Shown: positions 6,408-54,065 of the stretch, piece by piece
Position numbering within the stretch: position 1 is the stretch's first letter
Layout: each line of letters begins with the position of its first letter
Source: Nemertoderma westbladi
Lineage: Eukaryota; Animalia; Xenacoelomorpha
Direction: 5' to 3'
DNA length: 64,000 nt
NCBI GenBank assembly: GCA_032718475.1
Contig: JAUCBJ010006656.1
Coordinates: 1-64,000, forward strand
Notes under the pieces: generated by a model
The model's database searches: none
What the model was told of the DNA's origin: nothing
What the model saw: the letters and a program-made list of their open reading frames with translations, nothing else
Made by a program: the position numbers and the translations under genes

Positions 6408-9400
6408 ATGTCTGATACTAAGCAGAACATGTCAGACAGTTTATTAGATGTAACTATCTGCGACTCAGATAAGGGTGTAGAACCGTCTACACCTAAGTTC
6501 AGTTCACCTCCCACTGTGAGGAAGGTCATCCCTCCAGTAGTAATAACAGAACCGAGGCTGGTCCAACATCGTAGGTCTATCATAGGCACTCGAGCTCAGG
6601 TCAAGCGGGACCAAGAAGCAGCGGAACAGCAACAACCCGCGAGCCAAGAACTTATTTCTCAGCGGCCCGACAGCTCCAGTAGTGAGGATACTGTAGAGCT
6701 AACACCCGAGCGCGGAGCAAGGATGACGGATGCGGTTTATTCGGATCCCCTTCTCATCCTTCCTGCATCCGTACTCACTAGGTTATTGATCGCGGTGGAA
6801 GAACACCAGATTGATTGGGCGAGAAGTAAGCGATCCACTAAAGATAGTTATGAGGGATACACAAAGGAAGAACTGAAATCTATTGTCGAGTCGCAATGGA
6901 ACTTCCCCGGACCCGGACTCCCGTTTGATTTATCAGAAGCTGCCTGGGAAGACATACACCAGATGGGAGTAGCCAAGGAAACCATCGATCCAGCTGTGTG
7001 GAAGAGGTCCGCAGCCGGATACGCACAGGGATTCTTCAGCTCTATGGAGCGAGTAAAAGAACAACTGTTTCAACAACCGCAAGGACCTCAAGAGCAGGGA
7101 CAACTGCTTTATCAAGTTAGAGAAAGAATTCTGCGAATTAGGCTAATCTTATCGGCCTTTGAGGAGGCTTCTAAAAGAAGACAAGACACGTCATTGCAAG
7201 TTGCCGTAAAGACTTGGTTTCAACGGGTGAGTCGCCAGGTTCAAGGAACAGCGCAGTGGAAAGCTCAGCTGGAGGAGCGCTCAACCCATGGAGAATCAAC
7301 AGACGCTACATTTTCCCAAGTGGAGAGTGAAGCGACAGCAGAGAAACCGCATAAGAGGGATGCCATTGACATCTATCTGTCAGACTATCAGCGTTTTTTA
7401 GGAGATGAAGAGTTTAGGAGAAGGTTAGATGGACTTAGCCCTAATAGCGAAGGAACTCAGCGTGTGTTGGATGCCATCGATGTGGACATGAGGGCTGCGA
7501 ACCAGGCTAAATTTGATGAACGCCTCCGCATCACTAGAGTCCAAGAAGAACAAGTAAAGAAAAAACGTATAGAAGACAGAAAGGCAGCGGCAGTAGCAGC
7601 AGCAGTGGCATCGGCAGAAGCTGAAAGAAAGGCGGCCGAAGCGGAAAGAAAGGCGGCAGCGGCAGAGGCAGAAGCGGAGAGAAAAGCGGCCGAAGCGGAA
7701 AGAAAGGCGGCAGCGGCAGAAGCGGGGAGAAAAGCGGCCGAAGCGGAAAGAAAGGCGGCAGCGGCAGAGGCAGAAGCGGGGAGAAAAGCGGCCGAAGCGG
7801 AAAGAAAGGCGGCAGAGGCAGTAGCAGAAGCAGAACGGAGAGCGGCTGAAGAAACCACCCAACTAGAATTGGAAAACATTCAGGAGAATCAAGACTGCAT
7901 AAATAAACAGTTAACAGCTAGTAATATGCAGATGATGAATCGATCTACTCCCAAAAGACAGGGATATACATCATCTGAGGAAGGCGATACCACCGATACT
8001 GAAGGCAAAGGAAATAGATCTCACCTAAGCAGACGTAAAAGAACATCCCACCGTCAGAAATTGCCTGATTTGCCTCCAGCTGTTCGAAGGCAACTAAATA
8101 ACACCAACTTAGGTAGTACAGAACCCACAGACCAAATAATTACAATAGAGAGACTCCCTACTATAGTAGATGAGCCTGAAATAATTAGGCCTGTTCCCGA
8201 AGCCACCCTTTCGGTCGTAGAGACACCTGTACTCCCTGAACCTACCTCTCAATTCCCTTTGCACAGCACTAAGCTACCTGTGCCCAGCAGAACAGCCCAT
8301 GAGACAGTTCATGCCCTGGACTCCGAGCGAAATATTCACGATTTGTCGCCCGTTGTCCCTCGTCCGCCCGCTACAACGTTGGCGAATCCCGCTTCGGCGG
8401 TTGAATGGGTGGATGAGAGACGACGGGGGATGGATCTCCTGCTCAGACAGATGCAGGAGACCGTTCAGCAATTCAAGGGCACAGTAAGGGAAAGTAGGCT
8501 AGAGTTGCAAGAAGTGCAGCAAAGTATCGCGTTAGAACGCGATAAATTAGTAAATACACAAAAGGGTATACCACCACCCCCTGTAACAATGTGTCAACCT
8601 GTTAGGTCTGAATGCGTATCTCATGCGCAAGGTGTGGAGCCTACACGCATCTATACTGCTAGCGAAGTAGAAACTCCTATAGTGAACCCTATTAAGAGTA
8701 ATTATAGACCTGTTGATAATGATATTCCCTATAGACCTGATCATAATCCGAGAAATTTATATACCGATAACTCGATATTAAATAACACGATGGCCCAAGA
8801 AAGTTTTACGCGTCAAATGGCTAGAACTGAAGCCCGGCAAGCGGTAAAGGTGGGAGAGATAGTCAAGTTCAATGGAGATGAGATGAAATGGTTACCTTTT
8901 AATGAATATTATAAAGATAACATACAGAACTCTGTACTATCTAATGGAGAGAAACTTAGATTCCTCATCGAGTGTTTGGAAGGATCTCCCAAGTTAATGG
9001 CGTTAAAGTTTATTGGACATCCAGACGGATTAAGACAAGTTTGGGATACACTAAACATCAGGTATGGTAATAGGAATAACATAGCTGGGTATTTGTATGC
9101 AAAGTTGGTAGCGCCCCGAAAGTTTATTAGCAGCGGGATTATAGAGTTTTCCGATGAAATTCAGGAGATCTGCAGACAATTAGATTGGCTAGGTAAGTCT
9201 CATGAGTATCAGAGTGCTATGGTTATTAGAGCAGTGGCTTCTACTTTACCGAAGGGTGGAGTAGGTACACGCTGGGACAAGAAAGTGTTATATATGATGG
9301 AACAACAACGACGAGACCCTACCATGGCTGATCTCATGTCATTCTTAGATGGAGAAGTGAAATTACAGCTCCTAAGGCAGTCCAGAGAGAAGACACTGGA

Positions 9401-11438
9401 AAACAAGGTAAGTGAGAAACCCGTTTCTAGGAGAAGGGTAACACCAGTGTGTTATACAGACGACGGCGAAAGCCAGACTTCTCAAGGAGAGGATAGCGGG
9501 AAAGACACTGAAAGATCTTATTATGTCAATAAAACGCCTAAAGACCAGGTAAGTAAATTCAAGTCTCGAACCAATGACAGGAGAGAACAGGTAAGAAAAA
9601 CTCCTCCTACGTCTCCCAAGAGAATTCAGGTGAGAAAGCCCGAGGAAAGAACGAACGTGCACCACACAGCACATGTTAAAGTAAGTAACATCAAGCCCAA
9701 ATGTGTGCTGTGCGATGGGCCCCACCGTTTAAGTGCGTGTGATGAATTCCTGAGGAAATCTCTAAAGGACAGACGTGAAGTCATGTGGGATAAGCGGTTG
9801 TGTTATAATTGCCTCAGACGAGGACACCAACGGCGAACCTGTTACTCCGACGCAAGGTGTGCAAAGTGCGGTGCGAAACATCATATCTTGTTGCACACTG
9901 AATTCGAGCGAAATAGTCCAAGTCAGGTGAGTGATTCCGAACTACATGTCCAATTCAGTGATGTGAACGACACTGATCAATCTGAGATGGAAGGATTCTA
10001 TACGGACGAGTTCTCCGACGAAAACGAATCCTGTTACATGATAAATACCGCAGTGTATCGAGCACTCACTTATGAAAAAGATACAGAAAGTGACCTCACT
10101 CTAACTACTTCTGATCGACAACCATACTGGAAAGCGCCACCTTCCAATGTAGGAATCCGAGAATTTCCTGTAGTCCAGTTACGGGTCCACGGACCTCAGA
10201 AGAGCTATATAGTGAACGCCCTCCTGGACTCCGGCAGCACAGGAACATTCATCGATAAAGAACTAGCCGAAGACATCTTTGCTGGACAACCCAAGTTCCG
10301 AACCAAGCTAAACATGTCAGGGATCATGCAGGTTTGGAAATCTGCTGTGGCTGCCGACTATTATATAGGTGAGTTGTCCACTCCACAGGATAAACTAGGA
10401 GAACACAGTATAAGGTCAGTCAAAATGGTGGCAATAAAGAACTTCGCTACCACCCAAGTGGAACCTTATAATTGGGACGAAGATGATCATGCCCAACGAC
10501 TTAACATTCCTAGATTCGACACCGATTATCCTGGAGTACAAATATTAATCGGTCAAAACGCGCATGAGGCGCTGGAGACATTGGAGAAACGACCTGCTCA
10601 ACCGCAACCACTTCAGACCCATGCGGTAAGAACTAGAGTAGGTTGGTACCTTACTGGACCTTCCCGAAGAACGCTCAGAGAAAGACTGCTTCAAGATCGC
10701 GTCTGCCAGGTGAGTGAATGGGAAGATGATACTAGTGAGGGAGACGACCCAACTGAGGGAACACCATACTCCTCAGATAATGACGATATTAGCTCCAATG
10801 TAGATCAATGGAGATATTGCCCCAAGAAGTTTAATCCAACTGACATCGCTTCCAGAGGAGCAACTCCTCAAGAACTGACAGATACTACAGACCGGTTAGG
10901 TGAACCCGACTTCCTGAGTAAGGAGGATGAATGGCCTCCCCATCTTACTCCGACTGAGATTAGACCAGCCAAGGGAGCGGAGAAAGTCAAACCTAAAACC
11001 CAGACGGGTGGATCGGAGTTATTTGAACCCGGGATAGATCTGTCGGTATTACATATTGCCAGGGACGACGCCGTGGATCTGGACCTCCCCACCGCGAGTG
11101 GATCCTTCATGAAGATCAGAGAGAGCGATTGGAGCTCTGGAACATCAGACGTCTCGCAGGGACTCTCACCTCTCCTGCAGGGAGCGACGGACCACTATAG
11201 CTCCTGGATTCGGCTTTGTAAGGCCGTCGTGTACCTAGAGCGATGTTTCTATCGTCACTATTCCAGGACGAAGAGGAAACCTGGAATTGTATTCGGGATG
11301 CAGCGACTCAATCACCCAGTCGGTCGTTTGTGTTTACCGGAAGGGAATGGAGGACTCTCCGGAAACTGTGGAAGGCAAGATTCTCTTCCCATGACCACCT
11401 CCCTAATCCTTCAAACATCTAGGGACTCCATAACGTAA
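6408..11438 (+). CDS. BEL/Pao Gag-aspartic protease polyprotein with RT and most of RNase H deleted in frame and integrase absent
   Basis: First ATG at 6408. DUF1759-like Gag core (KFNGDEMKWLPF...EKLRFLIECLEG...VWDTLNIRYG). Three Cys/His knuckles (CVLCDGPHRLSAC, CYNCLRRGHQRRTC, CAKCGAKHHILLH). Protease ALLDSGS and BEL motif TRVGWYLTG, followed directly by the late-RNase H motif QWRYCPKKFNPTDIASRG. No YxDD or DDE motif. Confidence 0.9.
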   Translation: MSDTKQNMSDSLLDVTICDSDKGVEPSTPKFSSPPTVRKVIPPVVITEPRLVQHRRSIIGTRAQVKRDQEAAEQQQPASQELISQRPDSSSSEDTVELTPERGARMTDAVYSDPLLILPASVLTRLLIAVEEHQIDWARSKRSTKDSYEGYTKEELKSIVESQWNFPGPGLPFDLSEAAWEDIHQMGVAKETIDPAVWKRSAAGYAQGFFSSMERVKEQLFQQPQGPQEQGQLLYQVRERILRIRLILSAFEEASKRRQDTSLQVAVKTWFQRVSRQVQGTAQWKAQLEERSTHGESTDATFSQVESEATAEKPHKRDAIDIYLSDYQRFLGDEEFRRRLDGLSPNSEGTQRVLDAIDVDMRAANQAKFDERLRITRVQEEQVKKKRIEDRKAAAVAAAVASAEAERKAAEAERKAAAAEAEAERKAAEAERKAAAAEAGRKAAEAERKAAAAEAEAGRKAAEAERKAAEAVAEAERRAAEETTQLELENIQENQDCINKQLTASNMQMMNRSTPKRQGYTSSEEGDTTDTEGKGNRSHLSRRKRTSHRQKLPDLPPAVRRQLNNTNLGSTEPTDQIITIERLPTIVDEPEIIRPVPEATLSVVETPVLPEPTSQFPLHSTKLPVPSRTAHETVHALDSERNIHDLSPVVPRPPATTLANPASAVEWVDERRRGMDLLLRQMQETVQQFKGTVRESRLELQEVQQSIALERDKLVNTQKGIPPPPVTMCQPVRSECVSHAQGVEPTRIYTASEVETPIVNPIKSNYRPVDNDIPYRPDHNPRNLYTDNSILNNTMAQESFTRQMARTEARQAVKVGEIVKFNGDEMKWLPFNEYYKDNIQNSVLSNGEKLRFLIECLEGSPKLMALKFIGHPDGLRQVWDTLNIRYGNRNNIAGYLYAKLVAPRKFISSGIIEFSDEIQEICRQLDWLGKSHEYQSAMVIRAVASTLPKGGVGTRWDKKVLYMMEQQRRDPTMADLMSFLDGEVKLQLLRQSREKTLENKVSEKPVSRRRVTPVCYTDDGESQTSQGEDSGKDTERSYYVNKTPKDQVSKFKSRTNDRREQVRKTPPTSPKRIQVRKPEERTNVHHTAHVKVSNIKPKCVLCDGPHRLSACDEFLRKSLKDRREVMWDKRLCYNCLRRGHQRRTCYSDARCAKCGAKHHILLHTEFERNSPSQVSDSELHVQFSDVNDTDQSEMEGFYTDEFSDENESCYMINTAVYRALTYEKDTESDLTLTTSDRQPYWKAPPSNVGIREFPVVQLRVHGPQKSYIVNALLDSGSTGTFIDKELAEDIFAGQPKFRTKLNMSGIMQVWKSAVAADYYIGELSTPQDKLGEHSIRSVKMVAIKNFATTQVEPYNWDEDDHAQRLNIPRFDTDYPGVQILIGQNAHEALETLEKRPAQPQPLQTHAVRTRVGWYLTGPSRRTLRERLLQDRVCQVSEWEDDTSEGDDPTEGTPYSSDNDDISSNVDQWRYCPKKFNPTDIASRGATPQELTDTTDRLGEPDFLSKEDEWPPHLTPTEIRPAKGAEKVKPKTQTGGSELFEPGIDLSVLHIARDDAVDLDLPTASGSFMKIRESDWSSGTSDVSQGLSPLLQGATDHYSSWIRLCKAVVYLERCFYRHYSRTKRKPGIVFGMQRLNHPVGRLCLPEGNGGLSGNCGRQDSLPMTTSLILQTSRDSIT

Positions 11439-43059: not shown

Positions 43060-44214
43060 GTCAAATTTAATGACGCATCTTTTGCAAAAAACGGCGTTGC
43101 AATTAGATTTCAACTTTTCGATGTGGGTGCCACCTCAAAATTAGGTCCCCAGCACAAATTTTTTTGAAATTTTCGAATTTTACAAGGTCAATTAATTGTG
43201 AGGTAGTAATTCTTTATGTTGGGGCTTTTTTTATTGATTCTGATTCGTATGGAGCACTATACTACTCTATATAAGTACGTAAGGGAAGTGGTACGTCATT
43301 TTTGTTGCACTAAAATTAGGGCGTGGCACTTCAAATTTTCAAAATTGCAATATTCGTTAAATACTCCGAAGTTTTGATTTCAACGCATTTTTATGGGTTT
43401 TCTGGCCCGCTTAATCGATTGAAAGTAATATAGAAGACTCAATTCTTAGTGGTACATCATTTTTGGTACACCACAATTAGGGCGTGGTACTTTTTCAAAA
43501 TTTGAAAAAGTGCCACTTCCTAATTTTGGTGCACCAAAAATGCCGAACCACTAAGTCTTCAGGCTTCTATAATACTTTCAATTGATTCAGCGGTCCAGAA
43601 AACCTATAAATGTGCGTTGAAATCTCAACTTTGGTTTATTTTCCGAATCTCGTATTTTTCAATATTTGAAGTGCCACACCCTAATTTTGGTGCTCCAAAA
43701 AGGACGATCCACTAAGTCTTCAGGCTTCGAATGAATAATATTTTCATTCGATTCAGCGGTTCAGAAAACCTATAAAAACGAGTTGAAATCAAAAGATGGG
43801 GGTATCTTCTGAATATCGTATTTTTCAAAATTTGAAGTGCCACTTCTTAGGTGCACGAAAAATAGCATCCAGTTCAATTTTCGGAAATGGAATATAATCA
43901 CATTCGATTCAGCGTATAGTGAAAAACCTACTAATGCTAGCCAACAATGCCAATGCCACACTATCAGTTTTTAGAATATCAAAAAAAATGTATATTTTGT
44001 CCTGGGACTACTTCTATTTTTCATGAAAATTATTATACCCACGTTATGAAATTTTCATTTTTTTGGATTTGAAAATGTTCTTCGATAACTTTTTCACCTA
44101 CAGTCCAAATTTCGTAGGATTTTATTGGATGATTACAAAAATACAGCGGGGGGGCCGAATCGACCCCCCGCAAGTGGTGCTAATGGTCTAAACACCCCAG
44201 TGGTAATAGGGTTA
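43060..44214. mobile_element. Non-coding DNA-transposon remnant, piggyBac-like end
   Basis: Ends ...TAATAGGGTTAA (TTAA + CCC terminus) with a subterminal GGGGGG-CCGAATCGA-CCCCCC palindrome and internal direct and inverted subrepeats. A similar end TTAACCCTATTA is at ~20027. Left boundary uncertain. Confidence 0.45.
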
Positions 44215-47405: not shown

Positions 47406-48734
47406 ATGAGAGCAATATCAATTATAATTGTAATGGGTATATTTGAGAGAGTCTATAACAACAGCCATCAAGTTAATAGAACTATAATGAAAGCAAGTAC
47501 TGAACTAAATAATAAACTGTTTACTGATTATTTTTCTCATACACGACCAATTAACAACCAGAGTAATGTTATAAATGTCGGAGTTTTATTTCAGCTTACG
47601 CATCTTCTTGACATTGACATGATCCACTCTACACTGACATTTTCTGCCTGTGTCACTATTTTCTGGAAGGATGAAATGCTTCAATGGGACCCTGATGAGT
47701 ACCTTGGTATTACCGAGATTATTGTTGATCCAAACAAGGTATGGACTCCTCACATTGTATTGGAAGGCATGTTAGATGTTTGGATAGGTGATGAAGTAAA
47801 CTATGTTGCCATAGAGTCTACCGGTGAGATGAGATGGTATCAGAGTTGGAAAATGCATTCAATTCAGAATTTGGTGGCAACCTATTTCCCATATGATATT
47901 CAACCTCTCATGTTCAACATTTCTTCATGGACCTACAATGATAGTTTTGTCAATCTGACTTGGAGTGAAACTCTTATGCTTCCAATAATGATGTCTGTTG
48001 ACTTATCATCAAATGAATGGCTTTGGGATCACAGTATAATAACTTCTCAGCTACATGAACGCCTCACAAAGCCTGGAAAAGGACCAGATCTGTACACAAC
48101 CCTTGTTTATGCTATAACTTTACACAGAGCCCCACAATTCCACTTCCAGACCACAATATTTCCGTCCATCATTATAAGTTGCATCATCCCCTTCATATAT
48201 GTCATACCACATGAACAAGGTGATCGCATCAGTCTTGTTTCGGCAGTTTTCTTTGCCCAACTTCTCAATATGGTTGTAGTGCAGGATTACCTCCCGCCTT
48301 CAGGAAAGACACTACCTATTCTTTGTCAATTGTATTACTTTAATGTTTTGTTTACTCTAATCTGTGTCATTTTGTGTGTGATTATATCAAAAGCACGTTC
48401 TTTTGTTGACAAAGTGGTATTAAAGAGTGACAGTTCATCTACTGTTGTAATTGAAAATGTGGTACATGAATCAAATGGTTTTGTATGTCCCCCTCAGAAC
48501 AATATTAGATGGTATAAGCGCCAAAACGTTTGGCAAAAGGTTCTTAATTTTACTGACGTCTGCCTGTTCATGACGATGGCCATCGTTGCAACCACCGTCA
48601 ACCTTTACATTGCGCAAAAATACTACAGTGGGAAAACTAGTGAGCAGATTGTGAACGACTTAATGGCGGCTTATGGCGGAGGACATGTGGTTCTGGAGGC
48701 ATCACTATATTCATCCAGAGAAACTGTTGATTGA
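47406..48734 (+). CDS. Intronless pentameric ligand-gated ion channel subunit, divergent nAChR-like, lacking Cys-loop cysteines
   Basis: LFTDY...RP, WKDEMLQWDP, VWTPHIVL (loop A), YFPYDIQ (Pro-loop), SWTY (loop B), LHR pre-M1, four hydrophobic TM helices, GDRISL (cation-type M1-M2 linker), LPPSGKTLP (M2-M3). A TTTCATCAG acceptor just upstream suggests a 5' UTR intron. Confidence 0.92.
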   Translation: MRAISIIIVMGIFERVYNNSHQVNRTIMKASTELNNKLFTDYFSHTRPINNQSNVINVGVLFQLTHLLDIDMIHSTLTFSACVTIFWKDEMLQWDPDEYLGITEIIVDPNKVWTPHIVLEGMLDVWIGDEVNYVAIESTGEMRWYQSWKMHSIQNLVATYFPYDIQPLMFNISSWTYNDSFVNLTWSETLMLPIMMSVDLSSNEWLWDHSIITSQLHERLTKPGKGPDLYTTLVYAITLHRAPQFHFQTTIFPSIIISCIIPFIYVIPHEQGDRISLVSAVFFAQLLNMVVVQDYLPPSGKTLPILCQLYYFNVLFTLICVILCVIISKARSFVDKVVLKSDSSSTVVIENVVHESNGFVCPPQNNIRWYKRQNVWQKVLNFTDVCLFMTMAIVATTVNLYIAQKYYSGKTSEQIVNDLMAAYGGGHVVLEASLYSSRETVD

Positions 48735-48997
48735 CATAATTTATTATAAGTGAAGATATTACACTGCATATTAATCATAAATACAACATTGCAATATTCT
48801 ACTGTTATGGAGTGTGCAACAAAGTAAGCGAGTCTGGCATCTGTTTCAACCATTATTGTCTGTTTGTCTGTCGAAGGCAGTGGTGGTACGGCTACACTGT
48901 CACTACTCAACAAGTCGTGATATGGCTAATTTTCGCGTTACGACTAATCTATTGTTTTGGTTCTTGGTTTTACATATGGAATCATTATTGGTATTAT

Positions 48998-49740
48998 TAT
49001 ATGGTGTTTATATACAGATGAGGTCCGAAAAATGTAGTAATGTATTACAGCACGGGAGTATCCGGGGGGGGGGGGGGGGGGGGGTACCATCTTTCCTATG
49101 TTCTTCGACAACCTCACATTCAATATATTGTATATATTCCATCAGCAATATGTGAATTTGTTATAAATAATTTATTATTTACCTGTTAGAAGATGTAGTT
49201 TTCCTCATTAATGGTTGGGTTATTAGCAGAAGCATAAGTACAGCGAAGATTTTACGATGAGATGAGATGTTGCGGTCATCCTCCTTAAGTCCTGATTTGC
49301 CCAAAGAGAGAACATTTAGCGTTTCACCAAAATTGTTCATAGTTATCCAGTAAGTATATATTGTTGGATTTTAATAATTAAAGTCTTCAATTGCTCTGCA
49401 TGGGGGCGTAAATTAAAAAAATATATATATTGTAGGACCAGTAAAAATATAAAGTGTGGGAATGCGTGGCAAGGAGAATTGCGAAGTAATTATATATAAT
49501 ACAGTTGGGGAATGACAAAATGAAAGTAAATTCAAATCTGAATGGAATCCGTACCTGTGCTTGAGACAGTAACTAAGGATGTGCTGGTACCTCATAGAAT
49601 ACAATATATTGAATGTCAGGTTGTTGAAGAACATAGGGAAGATGGTAAATGCACCCCCCCCCATACTGGATACTCCCATGCTGTAAAACATTATTACATT
49701 ACAATTTTAGGACGTCGTCTGTACGTAAACACCATAGAAT
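48998..49740. mobile_element. Foldback/MITE-like element with ~150-bp imperfect terminal inverted repeats
   Basis: 48998-49148 is the imperfect reverse complement of 49573-49740, for example ACCATCTTTCCTATGTTCTTCGACAACC / GGTTGTTGAAGAACATAGGGAAGATGGT. Confidence 0.75.
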
Positions 49741-49959
49741 AAAATTGATAATGATTCCCTATGTATAACCAAGACAATAAATTAGCCGTAACGCGACAAT
49801 AATATATAAATAATTAATAATAACGCAACCCACGGCTAGACATGCTGACAAGGTCGGCGGAAGGTAATCAACCAACGGCGACCTACTGCGAAGACGCTTG
49901 TAGGAGTTGCAACCACAAGCGGTTTACTCTCGCATCTAAAAGATATGAGTATGAGAACA

Positions 49960-52505
49960 GTCAATGGATGAAAACCAGTCCACCGATTCAATATACCAGA
50001 ATATAATAATAGCCCACAAGGAATCAGCTAAGAGGCATATCCCCCAGAAACCCAAACGAAAACAGTATGTCCCATGGCAAAACTCTGAGGTTACTTGTAA
50101 GAGAGAAGATCTTAAGATAGCCTACAAAGTAAAAACTGAACAACTGACAACCGAAAACATTAACAAGGTTGAGAAAGCTAAGGACAATCTTAAATTGGCC
50201 TACAACATCAGCCAGGAAAAGTACATACGGGATAAAATTGAAGCAATTACAACTGCTCACATACAGCAACAATCAAGACTTACCTGGCAAACTGTGAATG
50301 AGGTATCTGGTCGGAAAAGTTGTGCAAAGGGGCGCCTCAAAGCTGATAGTCCCGAAGAACGTGTGGGGAAGTGGAAAAATCACTTCAGCAACTTGCTTGG
50401 GCAGCCACCAAACATCGAGGTCAGCCCTACAAGGAAAATATATGACAAGACACTACCTATAGAGACAGGGGACTTCACACATGCAGAACTCCAAAGAAGC
50501 ATTAAAAGCATGTCCAATAATAAAGCGAGTGGATTAGATGAAATCACAGCGGAGGTATGGAAAACGGGAGTGCTAAACAGACCATTATTGAATGTTTGCA
50601 CTACTACTACTACTACTAGGATCGGCATGCTGCATTGCAGCTGCATTTTTAAGAATGCTGTGCCGGCTTGTCAACAAAATTGCACCGCCACAACTCCCTA
50701 TCACCCATGACATTTGCTAGATCATCCGCATCTTTAAGGCCAGTGTCCTTTAAGATGCGTCTCAAGAAAGTCATGGGCTGTCCACCATGCTTATTCACTC
50801 CATGAGGCTGCCAAAGTACAAGATTATGCACTGGCTGGTCCTCACGGCGAAAGCAATGTCCTGCAAAGCGGAGGCGATTTTGTTCTAGTGTCAAGCTTGG
50901 GGGAACCAATGAGACACCTCCAATGTTATATAGTGTCTGGTTGGAGATGTGTGCATTGTACTTGACACAATGTACCCGGCGTAGCATTCTTGTGAATGTG
51001 CCATCCAGAGATTTGGTGTCCTCAGCAGTTAGAGCCCAGCATGGACTCCCGTAGAGGAGTACTGGAGCTACTGCTGCTCTAAATAATCGGACCTTAAGTT
51101 TCCGATTAATTCTAGGTGACTTCCAAATCCTGGAAAGCCTATTCAAGGCTGCCCATGCCTTTCCCTTACGTATTTGAAGGTCCTCACCTGACTTCCGGAT
51201 CCATGATCCCAGGTAACAGAAGTCGTCCACATGCTCAAGCATACCATCCTTTGAGCTTATGCTCATCCGATCAGAGACTTGCTGAGGACTTTCAAAGTTA
51301 ACTGTCAGAATTTTGGTCTTTCTGGAGTTAATAAAAAGACCAACACTAGAAGCAGCATGTTCTAATGAGCTGAGGAGCCTGAGCTGATGAGCTGAATGTT
51401 TGCAACCGCATGTTAAAAGGGGAAAAGCCTCCACCAATTTGGACTAAAGGTCAAAACTAAAGCCTCTCCTCAAGAAAGGAGACCTCGGTATACCAACAAA
51501 CTATCAAGGGATCTGTCTGCTTGTGGTAGCTGCTAAAATATACAATAAAATGATTCTATATAGGATTAGGCCTCACATAGAGAAACTACTGTGTAAGAGC
51601 CAAAACGGATTTCGACCAAGTAGATCAACAATTGCTCAGATACTTGCACTATGGAGACTGATTGAAGGAATTAAGTCAAAGAATCTCACTGCAGTCATGA
51701 CTTTTGTGGACTTCAAGAAGGCATTCGACTCCATCCTTAGAGGTAAAATGCTTGAAATCCTAAGAGCTTATGGAATACCAGAAGTAATCGTTGCTGGTAT
51801 TGGATTGTTATATTGTGACACAGAAGCACAGGTACTCTCACCAGATTCTGAAACTGAGTGTTTCTCAAACCTGGTTGGCGGACTGCAAGGTGACACATTA
51901 GCACCATTACTATTTGTAATTGTACTGAATTACGCAATGAGGATGGCCACAAAGGGTGAAGATCTGGGATTCATACTTCAAGAACGCAGAAGTAGTAGAT
52001 ATCCGGCAACTACAGTCACAGACACCTACTTCACAGATGACATCACCCTGCTCTCTAATACGCTAGCAGATGCAAAGCTTCTACTAAATAAAGTGGAGAG
52101 GGCTGCTAAGGAGGTTGGATTGCATATAAATGCTTCCAAGACCGAATTCATGACTTTTAATGTTGAAGGAAACTTGACAACCATTGATAATAATCAACTA
52201 AGGAAGGTTGACGACTTCCAGTACCTAGGATCATGGATAGAGAGTAGCAAAAAAGACATAGAAGTTAGGAAAGCAAAGGCTTGGGTAGCTCTATCAAAAA
52301 TGGATACCATCTGGAAATCAAATCTCTCCAGGCACCTGAAGACTGATTTCTTTCGAGCCACAGTGGAAAGTGTATTTTTATACAGGGGTGAGACCTGGAC
52401 ACTGACTAAATCACTTGAACAACGAATTGATGGTTACTACACAAGACTACTAAGGGCAGCCCTAAACATCCGCTGGAGACAACACATGACAAATGCCGAG
52501 CTTTA
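49960..52505 (+). mobile_element. RTE-type LINE family A, ORF2 fragment, interrupted at 50601-51392
   Basis: KASGLDEITAEVWK, QNGFR, FVDFKKAFDS, QGDTLAPLLF, FTDD and YLGSWI in ORFs 49964-50600 and 51405-52505. Confidence 0.9.
50601..51392 (-). mobile_element. RTE-type LINE family B, 5'-truncated copy inserted into family A
   Basis: (TAG)n tail and 12-bp TSD TGAATGTTTGCA (50589-50600 / 51393-51404). Near-identical to the 3' end of 52506-54065. Confidence 0.93.
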
Positions 52506-54065
52506 TACTACTTCTAGGATCGGCATGCTGCATTGCAGCTGCATTTTTAAGAATGCTGTGCCGGCTTGTCAACAAAATTGCACCGCCACAACTCCCTATC
52601 ACCCATGACATTTGCTAGATCATCCGCATCTTCAAGGCCAGTGTCCTTTAAGATGCGTCTCAAGAAAGTCATGGGCTGTCCACCATGCTTATTCACTCCA
52701 TGAGGCTGCCAAAGTACAAGATTATGCACTGGCTGGTCCTCACGGCGAAAGCAATGTCCTGCAAAGCAGAGGCGATTTTGTTCTAGTGTCAAGCTTGGGG
52801 GAACCAATGAGACACCTCCAATGTTATATAATGTCTGGTTGGAGATGTGTGCATTGTACTTGACACAATGAACCCGGCGTAGCATTCTTGTGAATGTGCC
52901 ATCCAGAGATTTGGTGTCCTCAGCAGTTAGAGCCCAGCATGGACTCCCGTAGAGGAGTACTGGAACTACTGCTGCTCTAAATAATCGGACCTTAAGTTTC
53001 CGATTAATTCTCGGTGACTTCCAAATCCTGGAAAGCCTATTCAAGGCTGCCCATGCCTTTCCCTTACGTATTCGAAGGTCCTCACCTGACTTCCGGATCC
53101 ATGATCCCAGGTAACAGAAGTCGTCCACATGCTCAAGCATACCATCCTTTGAGGTTATGCTCATCCGATCAGAGACTTGCTGAGGACTTTCAAAGTTAAC
53201 TGTCAAAATTTTGGTCTTTCTGGAGTTAGTAAAAAGACCAACACTAGAAGCAGCATGTTCTAATGAGCTGAGGAGCCGTTGGGCTCGCTCTAATGATTCT
53301 GAGAGTACTCCTAAGTCATCAGCAAAGTCTAGATCAGTTAGGTACTTGGCAAGATTTCCTCGACTTCTGGAGCCAGTAGGTGGAGTTATCATCACCCCAT
53401 CATCATTATGATGATCTAAGGACATGCATAGAACATAGTCAACCACAATAATGAACAAGAATGGTGCAAGTGTGTCTCCTTGGAGGATGCCCCATAACAC
53501 TTCAAATGGTTCTGTTTCACCGTCAACAGTAGACACAAATGTTGTCGAACCATCGTATACTGATCTGATTACTGCAATAATTTCATCAGCCATCCCATAT
53601 AATGAAAGTATGGTGAACATACGTGAGCGAAAGACTTGAAAAGGCCTTGAAGAAGTCAACAAAGATAACAGCCAGATACCTATCTTTCTTTTTTGATAAC
53701 TCTTCAATTATCCTTCTAAAAGCCAAAATGGGCTCCAAGGTCCCACGACCTTTTTGGAACCCATTCTGATTTCCACCGAGCAGTCTCTGAATGGGATCTC
53801 TGATGCGATTTAATAGAATTCTATTGTAAAGCTTTGCAGCAATCGAGATCAATGAGATTCCCCGAAAAGAACCATAGAGTGATAGATGCCCTTCTTGGGA
53901 ACTGGCACCAACATATTTGTTTTCATTTCTTGTGGGACTCTTGTTGTTCGGTACATGTCTACTATGATAGGATAAATGAGCTCCAAACATTCAGGTGTTT
54001 TAAAGACCTCAGGGGGGACACCATCTACTCCACTGGCACGATTGGTCTTAATGCTCTTTGCAGCA
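52506..54065 (-). mobile_element. RTE-type LINE family B, longer 5'-truncated copy
   Basis: RASGVDG, QNGFQ, FVDFFKAF, QGDTLAPFLF, FADD and YLGSWI motifs, with frameshifts and a short TAG-type tail. Confidence 0.92.

Follow-up and report, generated by a model that had tools for sequence, protein, structure and literature searches.

We describe P0001, a pentameric ligand-gated ion channel subunit encoded in the window (the whole 64-kb stretch of DNA that was analyzed), which is best explained as an intact nicotinic-branch member with a likely secondary loss of the Cys-loop disulfide, belonging to a small family of collinear paralogs. We favor the view, at somewhat better than an even chance, that it is a functional non-acetylcholine cation channel. 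What is rare about P0001 is the loss of the Cys-loop cysteine pair and not the erosion of its acetylcholine pocket. Taken singly, Cys-less pLGICs of animals, nAChR expansions without introns, and erosion of the acetylcholine pocket have been described before; new here are the diverged, collinear paralogs of P0001 in the same species and a second Cys-less clade within the cation branch.

Architecture of the P0001 gene

The reading frame of P0001 is unbroken over 442 residues and has an in-frame stop a short way upstream, in agreement with an earlier note on this DNA that described an intact, intronless ORF. Pfam places PF02931 at residues 32 to 242 (E 5e-33), and the membrane region gives PF02932 at E 0.008, too weak to reach the cut-off of that model. 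The superfamily layout, in which a PF02931 beta-sandwich precedes four membrane helices, is present. Cys residues are found at positions 82, 259, 307, 320, 324, 361, and 386, and Cys82 is the only one in the extracellular domain, as the earlier note had it. The coupling set of Jaiteh et al. (their Table 1), whose residues they give as the most conserved, is fully retained and consists of F161-P162-x-D164, W205 in beta9, R241, P253, and P297 in the M2-M3 loop. A sequencing or assembly artefact was considered and ruled out, because DNA contigs in three sets, drawn from two studies, cover the coding stretch in 30 of 30 bins and window-identical pieces extend over part of the Cys-less loop. The features of the gene, with the basis of each, are as follows.

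47406..48734, + strand: single-exon ORF for the 442-residue pentameric ligand-gated channel subunit P0001 (ORF translation, Pfam, fold)
47406..47456, + strand: short hydrophobic N-terminus, about residues 1-17, a likely signal peptide without a predicted cleavage site (hydropathy)
47499..48131, + strand: extracellular beta-sandwich domain, residues 32-242, whose one Cys leaves no intrachain disulfide (Pfam, model)
47649..47651, + strand: Cys82 in place of the loop D Trp, at a site that is Trp in 90 of 150 matches and also in one paralog piece (alignment)
47742..47768, + strand: loop A, WTPHIVLEG from residue 113, with His for the usual Asp and Glu120 for TyrA (alignment)
47865..47909, + strand: Cys-less beta6-beta7 (Pro) loop, Q154-L168, with F-P-x-D intact (alignment; pLDDT about 90-92)
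47922..47933, + strand: loop B, SWTY from residue 174, with Trp175 retained (motif, alignment)
48057..48098, + strand: loop C, without CC, with Lys222 for the first Tyr and Y230 retained; low model confidence (alignment, model)
48132..48203, + strand: M1 with Pro253, downstream of the pre-M1 Arg241 (motif alignment, model)
48219..48287, + strand: pore helix M2, with D-1', R0', S2', A6', F9', L13', N14', V16', and D20' (alignment)
48318..48389, + strand: M3, after the cation-branch-type M2-M3 loop LPPSGKTLP (model, loop pattern)
48390..48548, + strand: short M3-M4 cytoplasmic loop, about 56 residues (match comparison)
48549..48617, + strand: M4 (model)
48618..48731, + strand: unusually long post-M4 tail, about 39 residues (match comparison)

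Affinity of P0001 to the cation branch

A HMMER search with P0001 over 1.84 billion representative sequences returned 5324 matches at E<=0.001. The 150 best of these are 22 to 31% identical to P0001, and therefore no close relative is on record; even the best match is only about 30% identical, so that all known subunits differ from P0001 by about 70%. Most of the top matches, P0002 to P0023, are proteins of 700 to 1200 residues with at least two channel modules (from scallop, clam, and sea urchin), which are probably fused gene models of tandem arrays with scores inflated thereby.

The best 60 of 105 PDB sequence matches are all nAChR, 5-HT3A, or Alpo4. The nearest Atlas clusters are ZAC-like and nAChR-like, and the NCBIfam model TIGR00860 scores 99 bits; the prokaryotic LGIC_1 model of the same collection gave no match at E<=1. 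When the membrane part is scored against the PDB, muscle delta ranks first and CRT1 fifth. P0001 carries the motifs of the cation branch (nAChR/5-HT3/ZAC), namely G-E/D-K/R before M2 and a second Pro in the M2-M3 loop. This second-Pro pattern occurs in 113 of the 148 matches that cover the segment, and SY..D before M3 occurs in none of them. An AlphaFold model built on a 115-row alignment has a mean pLDDT of 85 and a pTM of 0.77, with confidence near 90 over the Cys-less loop and low in loops F and C and in the tail. The alignment consists mostly of cysteine-bearing relatives, so that the good shape of the loop cannot count as separate evidence that it folds; from the single sequence, the pLDDT is 36. 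With the model as query, 36 of 36 rows among the Foldseek matches listed are nAChRs. By its motifs, best sequence matches, and predicted fold, P0001 is assigned to the cation branch, and the loss of its Cys-loop pair is likely secondary because all of its best sequence and fold matches are of that branch (nAChR/5-HT3). The secondarily Cys-less cation channel that the earlier note proposed is supported, as a cation-branch subunit, by the same three kinds of evidence, which also set P0001 apart from the Cys-less clade already described.

Further searches added little to this set. Word-index protein searches with whole P0001 and with residues 30 to 185 returned nothing, and a search with a five-row alignment returned only P0081 and P0176. 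Metagenome scans gave no relative; the motif pattern was found at four metagenomic loci, none of which is homologous by tblastn, and a plasmid search gave no match.

The Cys-less loop and a second Cys-less clade

Both Cys-loop cysteines had been reported as absent, and the alignment bears this out. P0001 reads Q154-NLVATYFPYDIQP-L168 with the exact 13-residue spacing, aligned to C128 and C142 of muscle alpha1, and so has Gln154 and Leu168 instead of the C-x13-C that strictly defines a Cys-loop receptor. Among its 150 best matches, 141 carry both cysteines, three carry one, and six carry none. The residues at the cysteine sites of bacterial Cys-less channels are polar at the first and hydrophobic at the second (PMC4795631). 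The polar/hydrophobic pair Gln154/Leu168 would likewise allow the loop to pack without a disulfide, matching the pattern of prokaryotic Cys-less channels but presumably arrived at independently. An isolated one-cysteine case from a mollusc is P0129 (Haliotis XP_071115318.1), in which the first Cys-loop cysteine is present and the second is Phe.

All trees were built from cation-branch matches only and hold no anion-branch, primary Cys-less, or chemotactile receptor (CR) sequences. In a FastTree of 151 domains, P0001 groups with two Symsagittifera proteins and one marine protein, and a Convolutriloba protein and two gastropod proteins adjoin this group. All six neighbors carry both Cys-loop cysteines, and five of the six share with P0001 an Asn at M2 14' that occurs in just 5 of the 150 matches overall. 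A mixture-model tree (LG+C20, two cysteine columns dropped) was computed for 45 rows, comprising 43 of the 150 matches chosen by us (one swapped for a longer isoform), P0176, and P0001. Here P0001 has the longest branch (2.58) and is a member of no starred set; together with the acoel group, named after the FastTree result, it lies on one side of a branch with support of 65/82. These trees weakly suggest that P0001 is nearest to cysteine-bearing acoel subunits, a grouping that long-branch attraction could explain, and they offer no more than a lead toward an acoel or related animal as the host.

A second Cys-less clade of the cation branch consists of P0030, P0036, P0043, P0052, P0076, P0089, P0101, and P0106, that is, the six Cys-less matches and two one-cysteine rows. 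It has support of 100/99 and is nested under Nematostella and Montipora sequences. The residues at its cysteine sites are Phe/Phe or Ile/Phe, and the two one-cysteine members have the second cysteine only. Placement of P0001 in one clade with the P0030-type proteins was rejected (AU p=0.0088, cysteine columns dropped), which indicates that the cation branch lost the Cys pair at least twice.

The acetylcholine pocket and the pore

The sequences of loops A and B, the Cys in place of the loop D Trp, and the missing CC of loop C (see the feature list) are each present as the earlier note had quoted them. Its broader statement that most acetylcholine-binding residues are gone stands, in that three of the five aromatic-box residues are lost, with one refinement: the second loop C Tyr persists. 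The two residues that are left are Trp175 (TrpB) and Y230 (TyrC2, equivalent to alpha1 Y198), and His116 occupies a site that is Asp in 125 of 150 matches. Of the set that marks alpha-type nAChR subunits (CC with TyrA, TrpB, TyrC1, and TyrC2), P0001 has just TrpB and TyrC2. Alpha-subunit status was considered and can be ruled out by the missing vicinal CC, Glu120 for TyrA, and Lys222 for TyrC1. Such losses are ordinary among the relatives of P0001 as judged from the aligned sequences, since CC is found in 71 of the 150 best matches, TyrA in 63, TrpD in 90, and CC with TyrA and TrpB in 45. Genes without introns are common in invertebrate nAChR expansions, and so are lost acetylcholine residues.

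The M2 numbering confirms the acidic -1' residue (GDR) and the Phe at 9' that had been pointed out before. With E-4' just upstream and Gly at -2', acidic residues stand at -4', -1', and 20'. Phe at 9' is rare among the best matches of P0001 (2/150) and is given for 13% of pLGICs (PMC4795631). Acidic rings are established as determinants of cation selectivity in the pLGIC family (PMC9874803); the rings at -4', -1', and 20' would select cations in the P0001 pore, and Phe9' would act as its gate. The M3-M4 loop, also described as short in the earlier note, is shorter than in all 88 matches with a detectable M4 (out of 114 aligned), for which the median is 127 residues. The post-M4 tail is longer than in all of these 88 (median 7). 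In the model, part of this tail prolongs the M4 helix, and the tail could lie against the Cys-less loop.

Paralogs and selection

DNA runs from the same species contain at least three diverged paralog types of P0001 at 78 to 90% nucleotide identity, one type at 86 to 90% and two at 78 to 85%, and these pieces were found in two or more studies. The earlier note had proposed that paralogs be counted; the multi-copy family itself is absent from it. Several paralog joints have the same length and are diverged, which makes the paralogs collinear and intronless over the parts covered, and the indels among those listed either cancel out or, in one contig, add up to 12 nt. At the second-cysteine site, one paralog piece reads Val, so that Cys is lost there too, and another retains the loop D Trp. 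Run X5, which bears the same species label, contains two paralog contigs whose listed differences are as in the other runs. Neither P0001 nor its 90% paralog is among the contigs of this run; copy number may vary, and contigs cannot show absence.

Partial dN/dS values for P0001 against the paralogs are 0.14 and 0.25, on 17 and 21 codons for which the list of differences seems complete. These 38 codons take in 31 of 40 listed differences (186 more are unlisted), with contigs assigned to paralogs by depth; five differences near an indel artefact and four from other contigs were omitted. Pooled, the changes comprise 14 synonymous and 17 non-synonymous (p=0.004). The neutral dN/dS that the earlier note had named, along with a lack of transcription, as grounds against its reading is not what this partial comparison gives. 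Under neutrality, the chance that a 442-codon frame stays free of stops is about p = 0.05 to 0.003 at 5 to 10% lineage divergence. P0001 and its paralogs look like a small species-level family under constraint, as these suggestive figures indicate.

Comparison with known receptors

P0001 resembles the muscle alpha1 and neuronal alpha4 subunits of nAChRs (PDB 9dmg, 5kxi) in fold, domain order, and coupling residues, as well as in the loop B Trp, the second loop C Tyr, and the acidic -1' and 20' positions. It differs from them in having no Cys-loop disulfide, vicinal CC, TyrA, TyrC1, or TrpD, and in its Phe9', short M3-M4 loop, long post-M4 tail, and single exon. The acoel subunits Symsagittifera XP_063710188.1 and XP_063710528.1 and Convolutriloba XP_075260703.1 are its tree neighbors and have Asn at M2 14'; unlike P0001, they keep both Cys-loop cysteines, and their identity to it is 20 to 27%.

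Cephalopod chemotactile receptors keep the Cys-loop. Like P0001, they are nAChR-derived, intronless, and expanded, with a remodelled pocket (PMC13174522, PMC11526382). CRT1 (PDB 8eis/9e6b) is outside the best 60 of 105 full-length PDB matches of P0001, which therefore give no sign of a common origin, although it ranks fifth for the membrane part; no special link to the cephalopod receptors was found in the PDB matches. Bivalve nAChR expansions share with P0001 their intronless genes, lineage specificity, and divergent pockets (Jiao et al. 2019, PMC6896357), but no mollusc sequence is close to P0001 among the HMMER matches. In that study, 8 of 141 oyster ligand-binding domains are reported to have no Cys-loop; they could be fragmentary or could come from genes of the primary Cys-less type.

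Primary Cys-less Pro-loop receptors (Jaiteh et al. 2016; PMC9874803; PMC13174522) and secondary Cys-less anion-branch genes such as lgc-34 of C. elegans are like P0001 in having no Cys-loop cysteines and in keeping F/Y-P-x-D, but by motifs and best matches P0001 is of another branch. It shares the absence of loop cysteines with the primary eukaryotic clade and has none of the marks that were read from members of that clade, namely SY..D, no WTY, and no M1 Pro. Three Cys-less metazoan rows in the alignment of Jaiteh et al. (one partial, read by eye) show SY..D and no M1 Pro. The secondary Cys-less metazoan genes that Jaiteh et al. list fall in the anionic clade only, with two ciliate sequences given for the cationic clade (PMC4795631). 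Johnson 2023 regards schistosome Cys-less channels as probably primary (PMC9874803), and MolluscaGenes, whose wording mixes the Cys-loop with YXCC, describes a Cys-less clade with anion-type motifs (PMC13174522). Faltine-Gonzalez and Layden 2019 excluded 5 of 31 Nematostella candidates as lacking 'the cysteine loop', a phrase that is ambiguous as to the cysteines meant (PMC6825365). Cys-less genes of this kind have been noticed before and set aside. The literature searched, which leaves out most subscription papers and whose supplements may list some cases, gave no account of a Cys-less family of the cation branch in metazoans.

Proposed function and alternatives

P0001 is predicted to form a cation-selective pentamer, by itself or with its paralogs. 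Its remodelled pocket, in which Trp175 and Tyr230 are kept and Glu120, Lys222, and Cys82 replace aromatics, would bind a ligand other than acetylcholine, and the pocket differences among the paralogs would yield different ligands. A peripheral chemosensory role for P0001 is plausible by analogy. Cephalopod chemotactile receptors are sensory and offer a precedent for nAChR-derived sensors (PMC11526382), and in the acoel Isodiametra, AChR genes are expressed by cells that are chemosensory (PMC8097308). A bolder proposal, to which we give a limited chance, makes P0001 the first of an undescribed group of ionotropic chemoreceptors that derive from nicotinic receptors and have no disulfide. Such a group, in an acoel or another early-branching bilaterian related to acoels, would have converged with the chemotactile receptors of octopus; taken with the cnidarian-like clade, the cation branch would then have dropped the disulfide at least twice, with one clade preserving one-cysteine intermediates.

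A subunit that has no alpha-type residues fits an accessory role just as well. P0001 would in that case be a non-alpha subunit that co-assembles with ordinary alpha subunits, as part of a receptor for acetylcholine whose pore it tunes and whose ligand binds at other interfaces. P0001 is without CC and TyrA, as any non-alpha subunit is, the combination of CC, TyrA, and TrpB is present in a minority of its matches (45/150), and its membrane part scores highest against muscle delta. However, the Trp of the complementary face is also gone (C82), P0001 is far from all known subunits (about 70% divergent), and a collinear species-level family with varying pocket residues resembles a receptor repertoire more, so that we consider an accessory role rather unlikely. 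GLIC is proton-gated, and its short cytoplasmic loop and Cys-less loop are paralleled in P0001, which also has titratable residues in the pocket loops (His116, at the site that is Asp in 125/150, and Glu120). Gating of P0001 by protons or another physical cue, or a constitutive leak, instead of gating by an organic ligand, is nonetheless improbable given that the aromatic-box residues Trp175 and Tyr230 are retained and that P0001 has no specific sequence likeness to prokaryotic channels.

P0001 could also be a decaying duplicate in a transposon-rich region, with motifs that eroded after release from selection. The remaining Pfam matches of the window are all retroelement domains, the branch of P0001 is long, and run X5 shows two paralog contigs and not P0001, an absence that in contigs proves nothing. 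Against decay, the frame is intact, every coupling residue is retained, with changes confined to the cysteines and the pocket, there is a synonymous excess against the paralogs, and the loss of the second cysteine is common to a paralog about 20% diverged; we regard decay as very improbable. It is more improbable still, to the point of being hardly credible, that P0001 was without the cysteines from the start, as a member of the ancient clade of primary Cys-less eukaryotic channels (Jaiteh et al. 2016). Its polar-first, hydrophobic-second replacement fits the Cys-less channel pattern (PMC4795631) and the sequences of that clade are outside the tree built here, but SY..D is found in 0 of 148 best matches, and the oyster and lancelet ectodomains, in the rows read by eye, have neither the loop B WTY nor the M1 Pro, both of which P0001 has. 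The reading that we prefer, a nicotinic-branch channel for a ligand other than acetylcholine, bears on a question that Jaiteh et al. 2016 left open, the reason for the gain and retention of the Cys-loop disulfide; the same authors postulated that there could be Cys-loop receptors that work in a Cys-less form (PMC4795631). A nicotinic-branch family without the disulfide beside cysteine-bearing relatives is a natural test of what substitutes for the disulfide when the channel folds and gates. Should the paralogs be sensory, nicotinic receptors would have been converted into environmental sensors a second, independent time.

Genomic setting

No intron-bearing parent of P0001 was found, and tblastn found no paralog elsewhere in the window. 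The 666 nt downstream of the gene contain neither an A-run of at least 8 nor an AATAAA, just an ATTAAA at 49377. As neither an intron-bearing parent nor a poly(A) relic was found, the P0001 copy more likely arose by DNA duplication from an ancestor that had no introns to begin with than as a fresh retrogene.

Outside P0001, the Pfam matches in the window (frames of at least 85 residues) are all to retroelement domains. A 1676-residue open frame with DUF1759 at 6408-11438 (+) likely represents the Gag-protease portion of a retrotransposon of the BEL/Pao type and contains an Ala/Glu/Arg/Lys tandem repeat at 7602-7831. Transposon-like inverted repeat pairs of about 81% identity lie at 48962-49133 / 49599-49774 and also at 43287-43843, the one at 48962 beginning about 230 nt 3' of the channel gene. 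A LINE reverse-transcriptase fragment is present in two copies that are 98.6% identical (50608-51379 and 52506-53277), interleaved with a second LINE family on the opposite strand.
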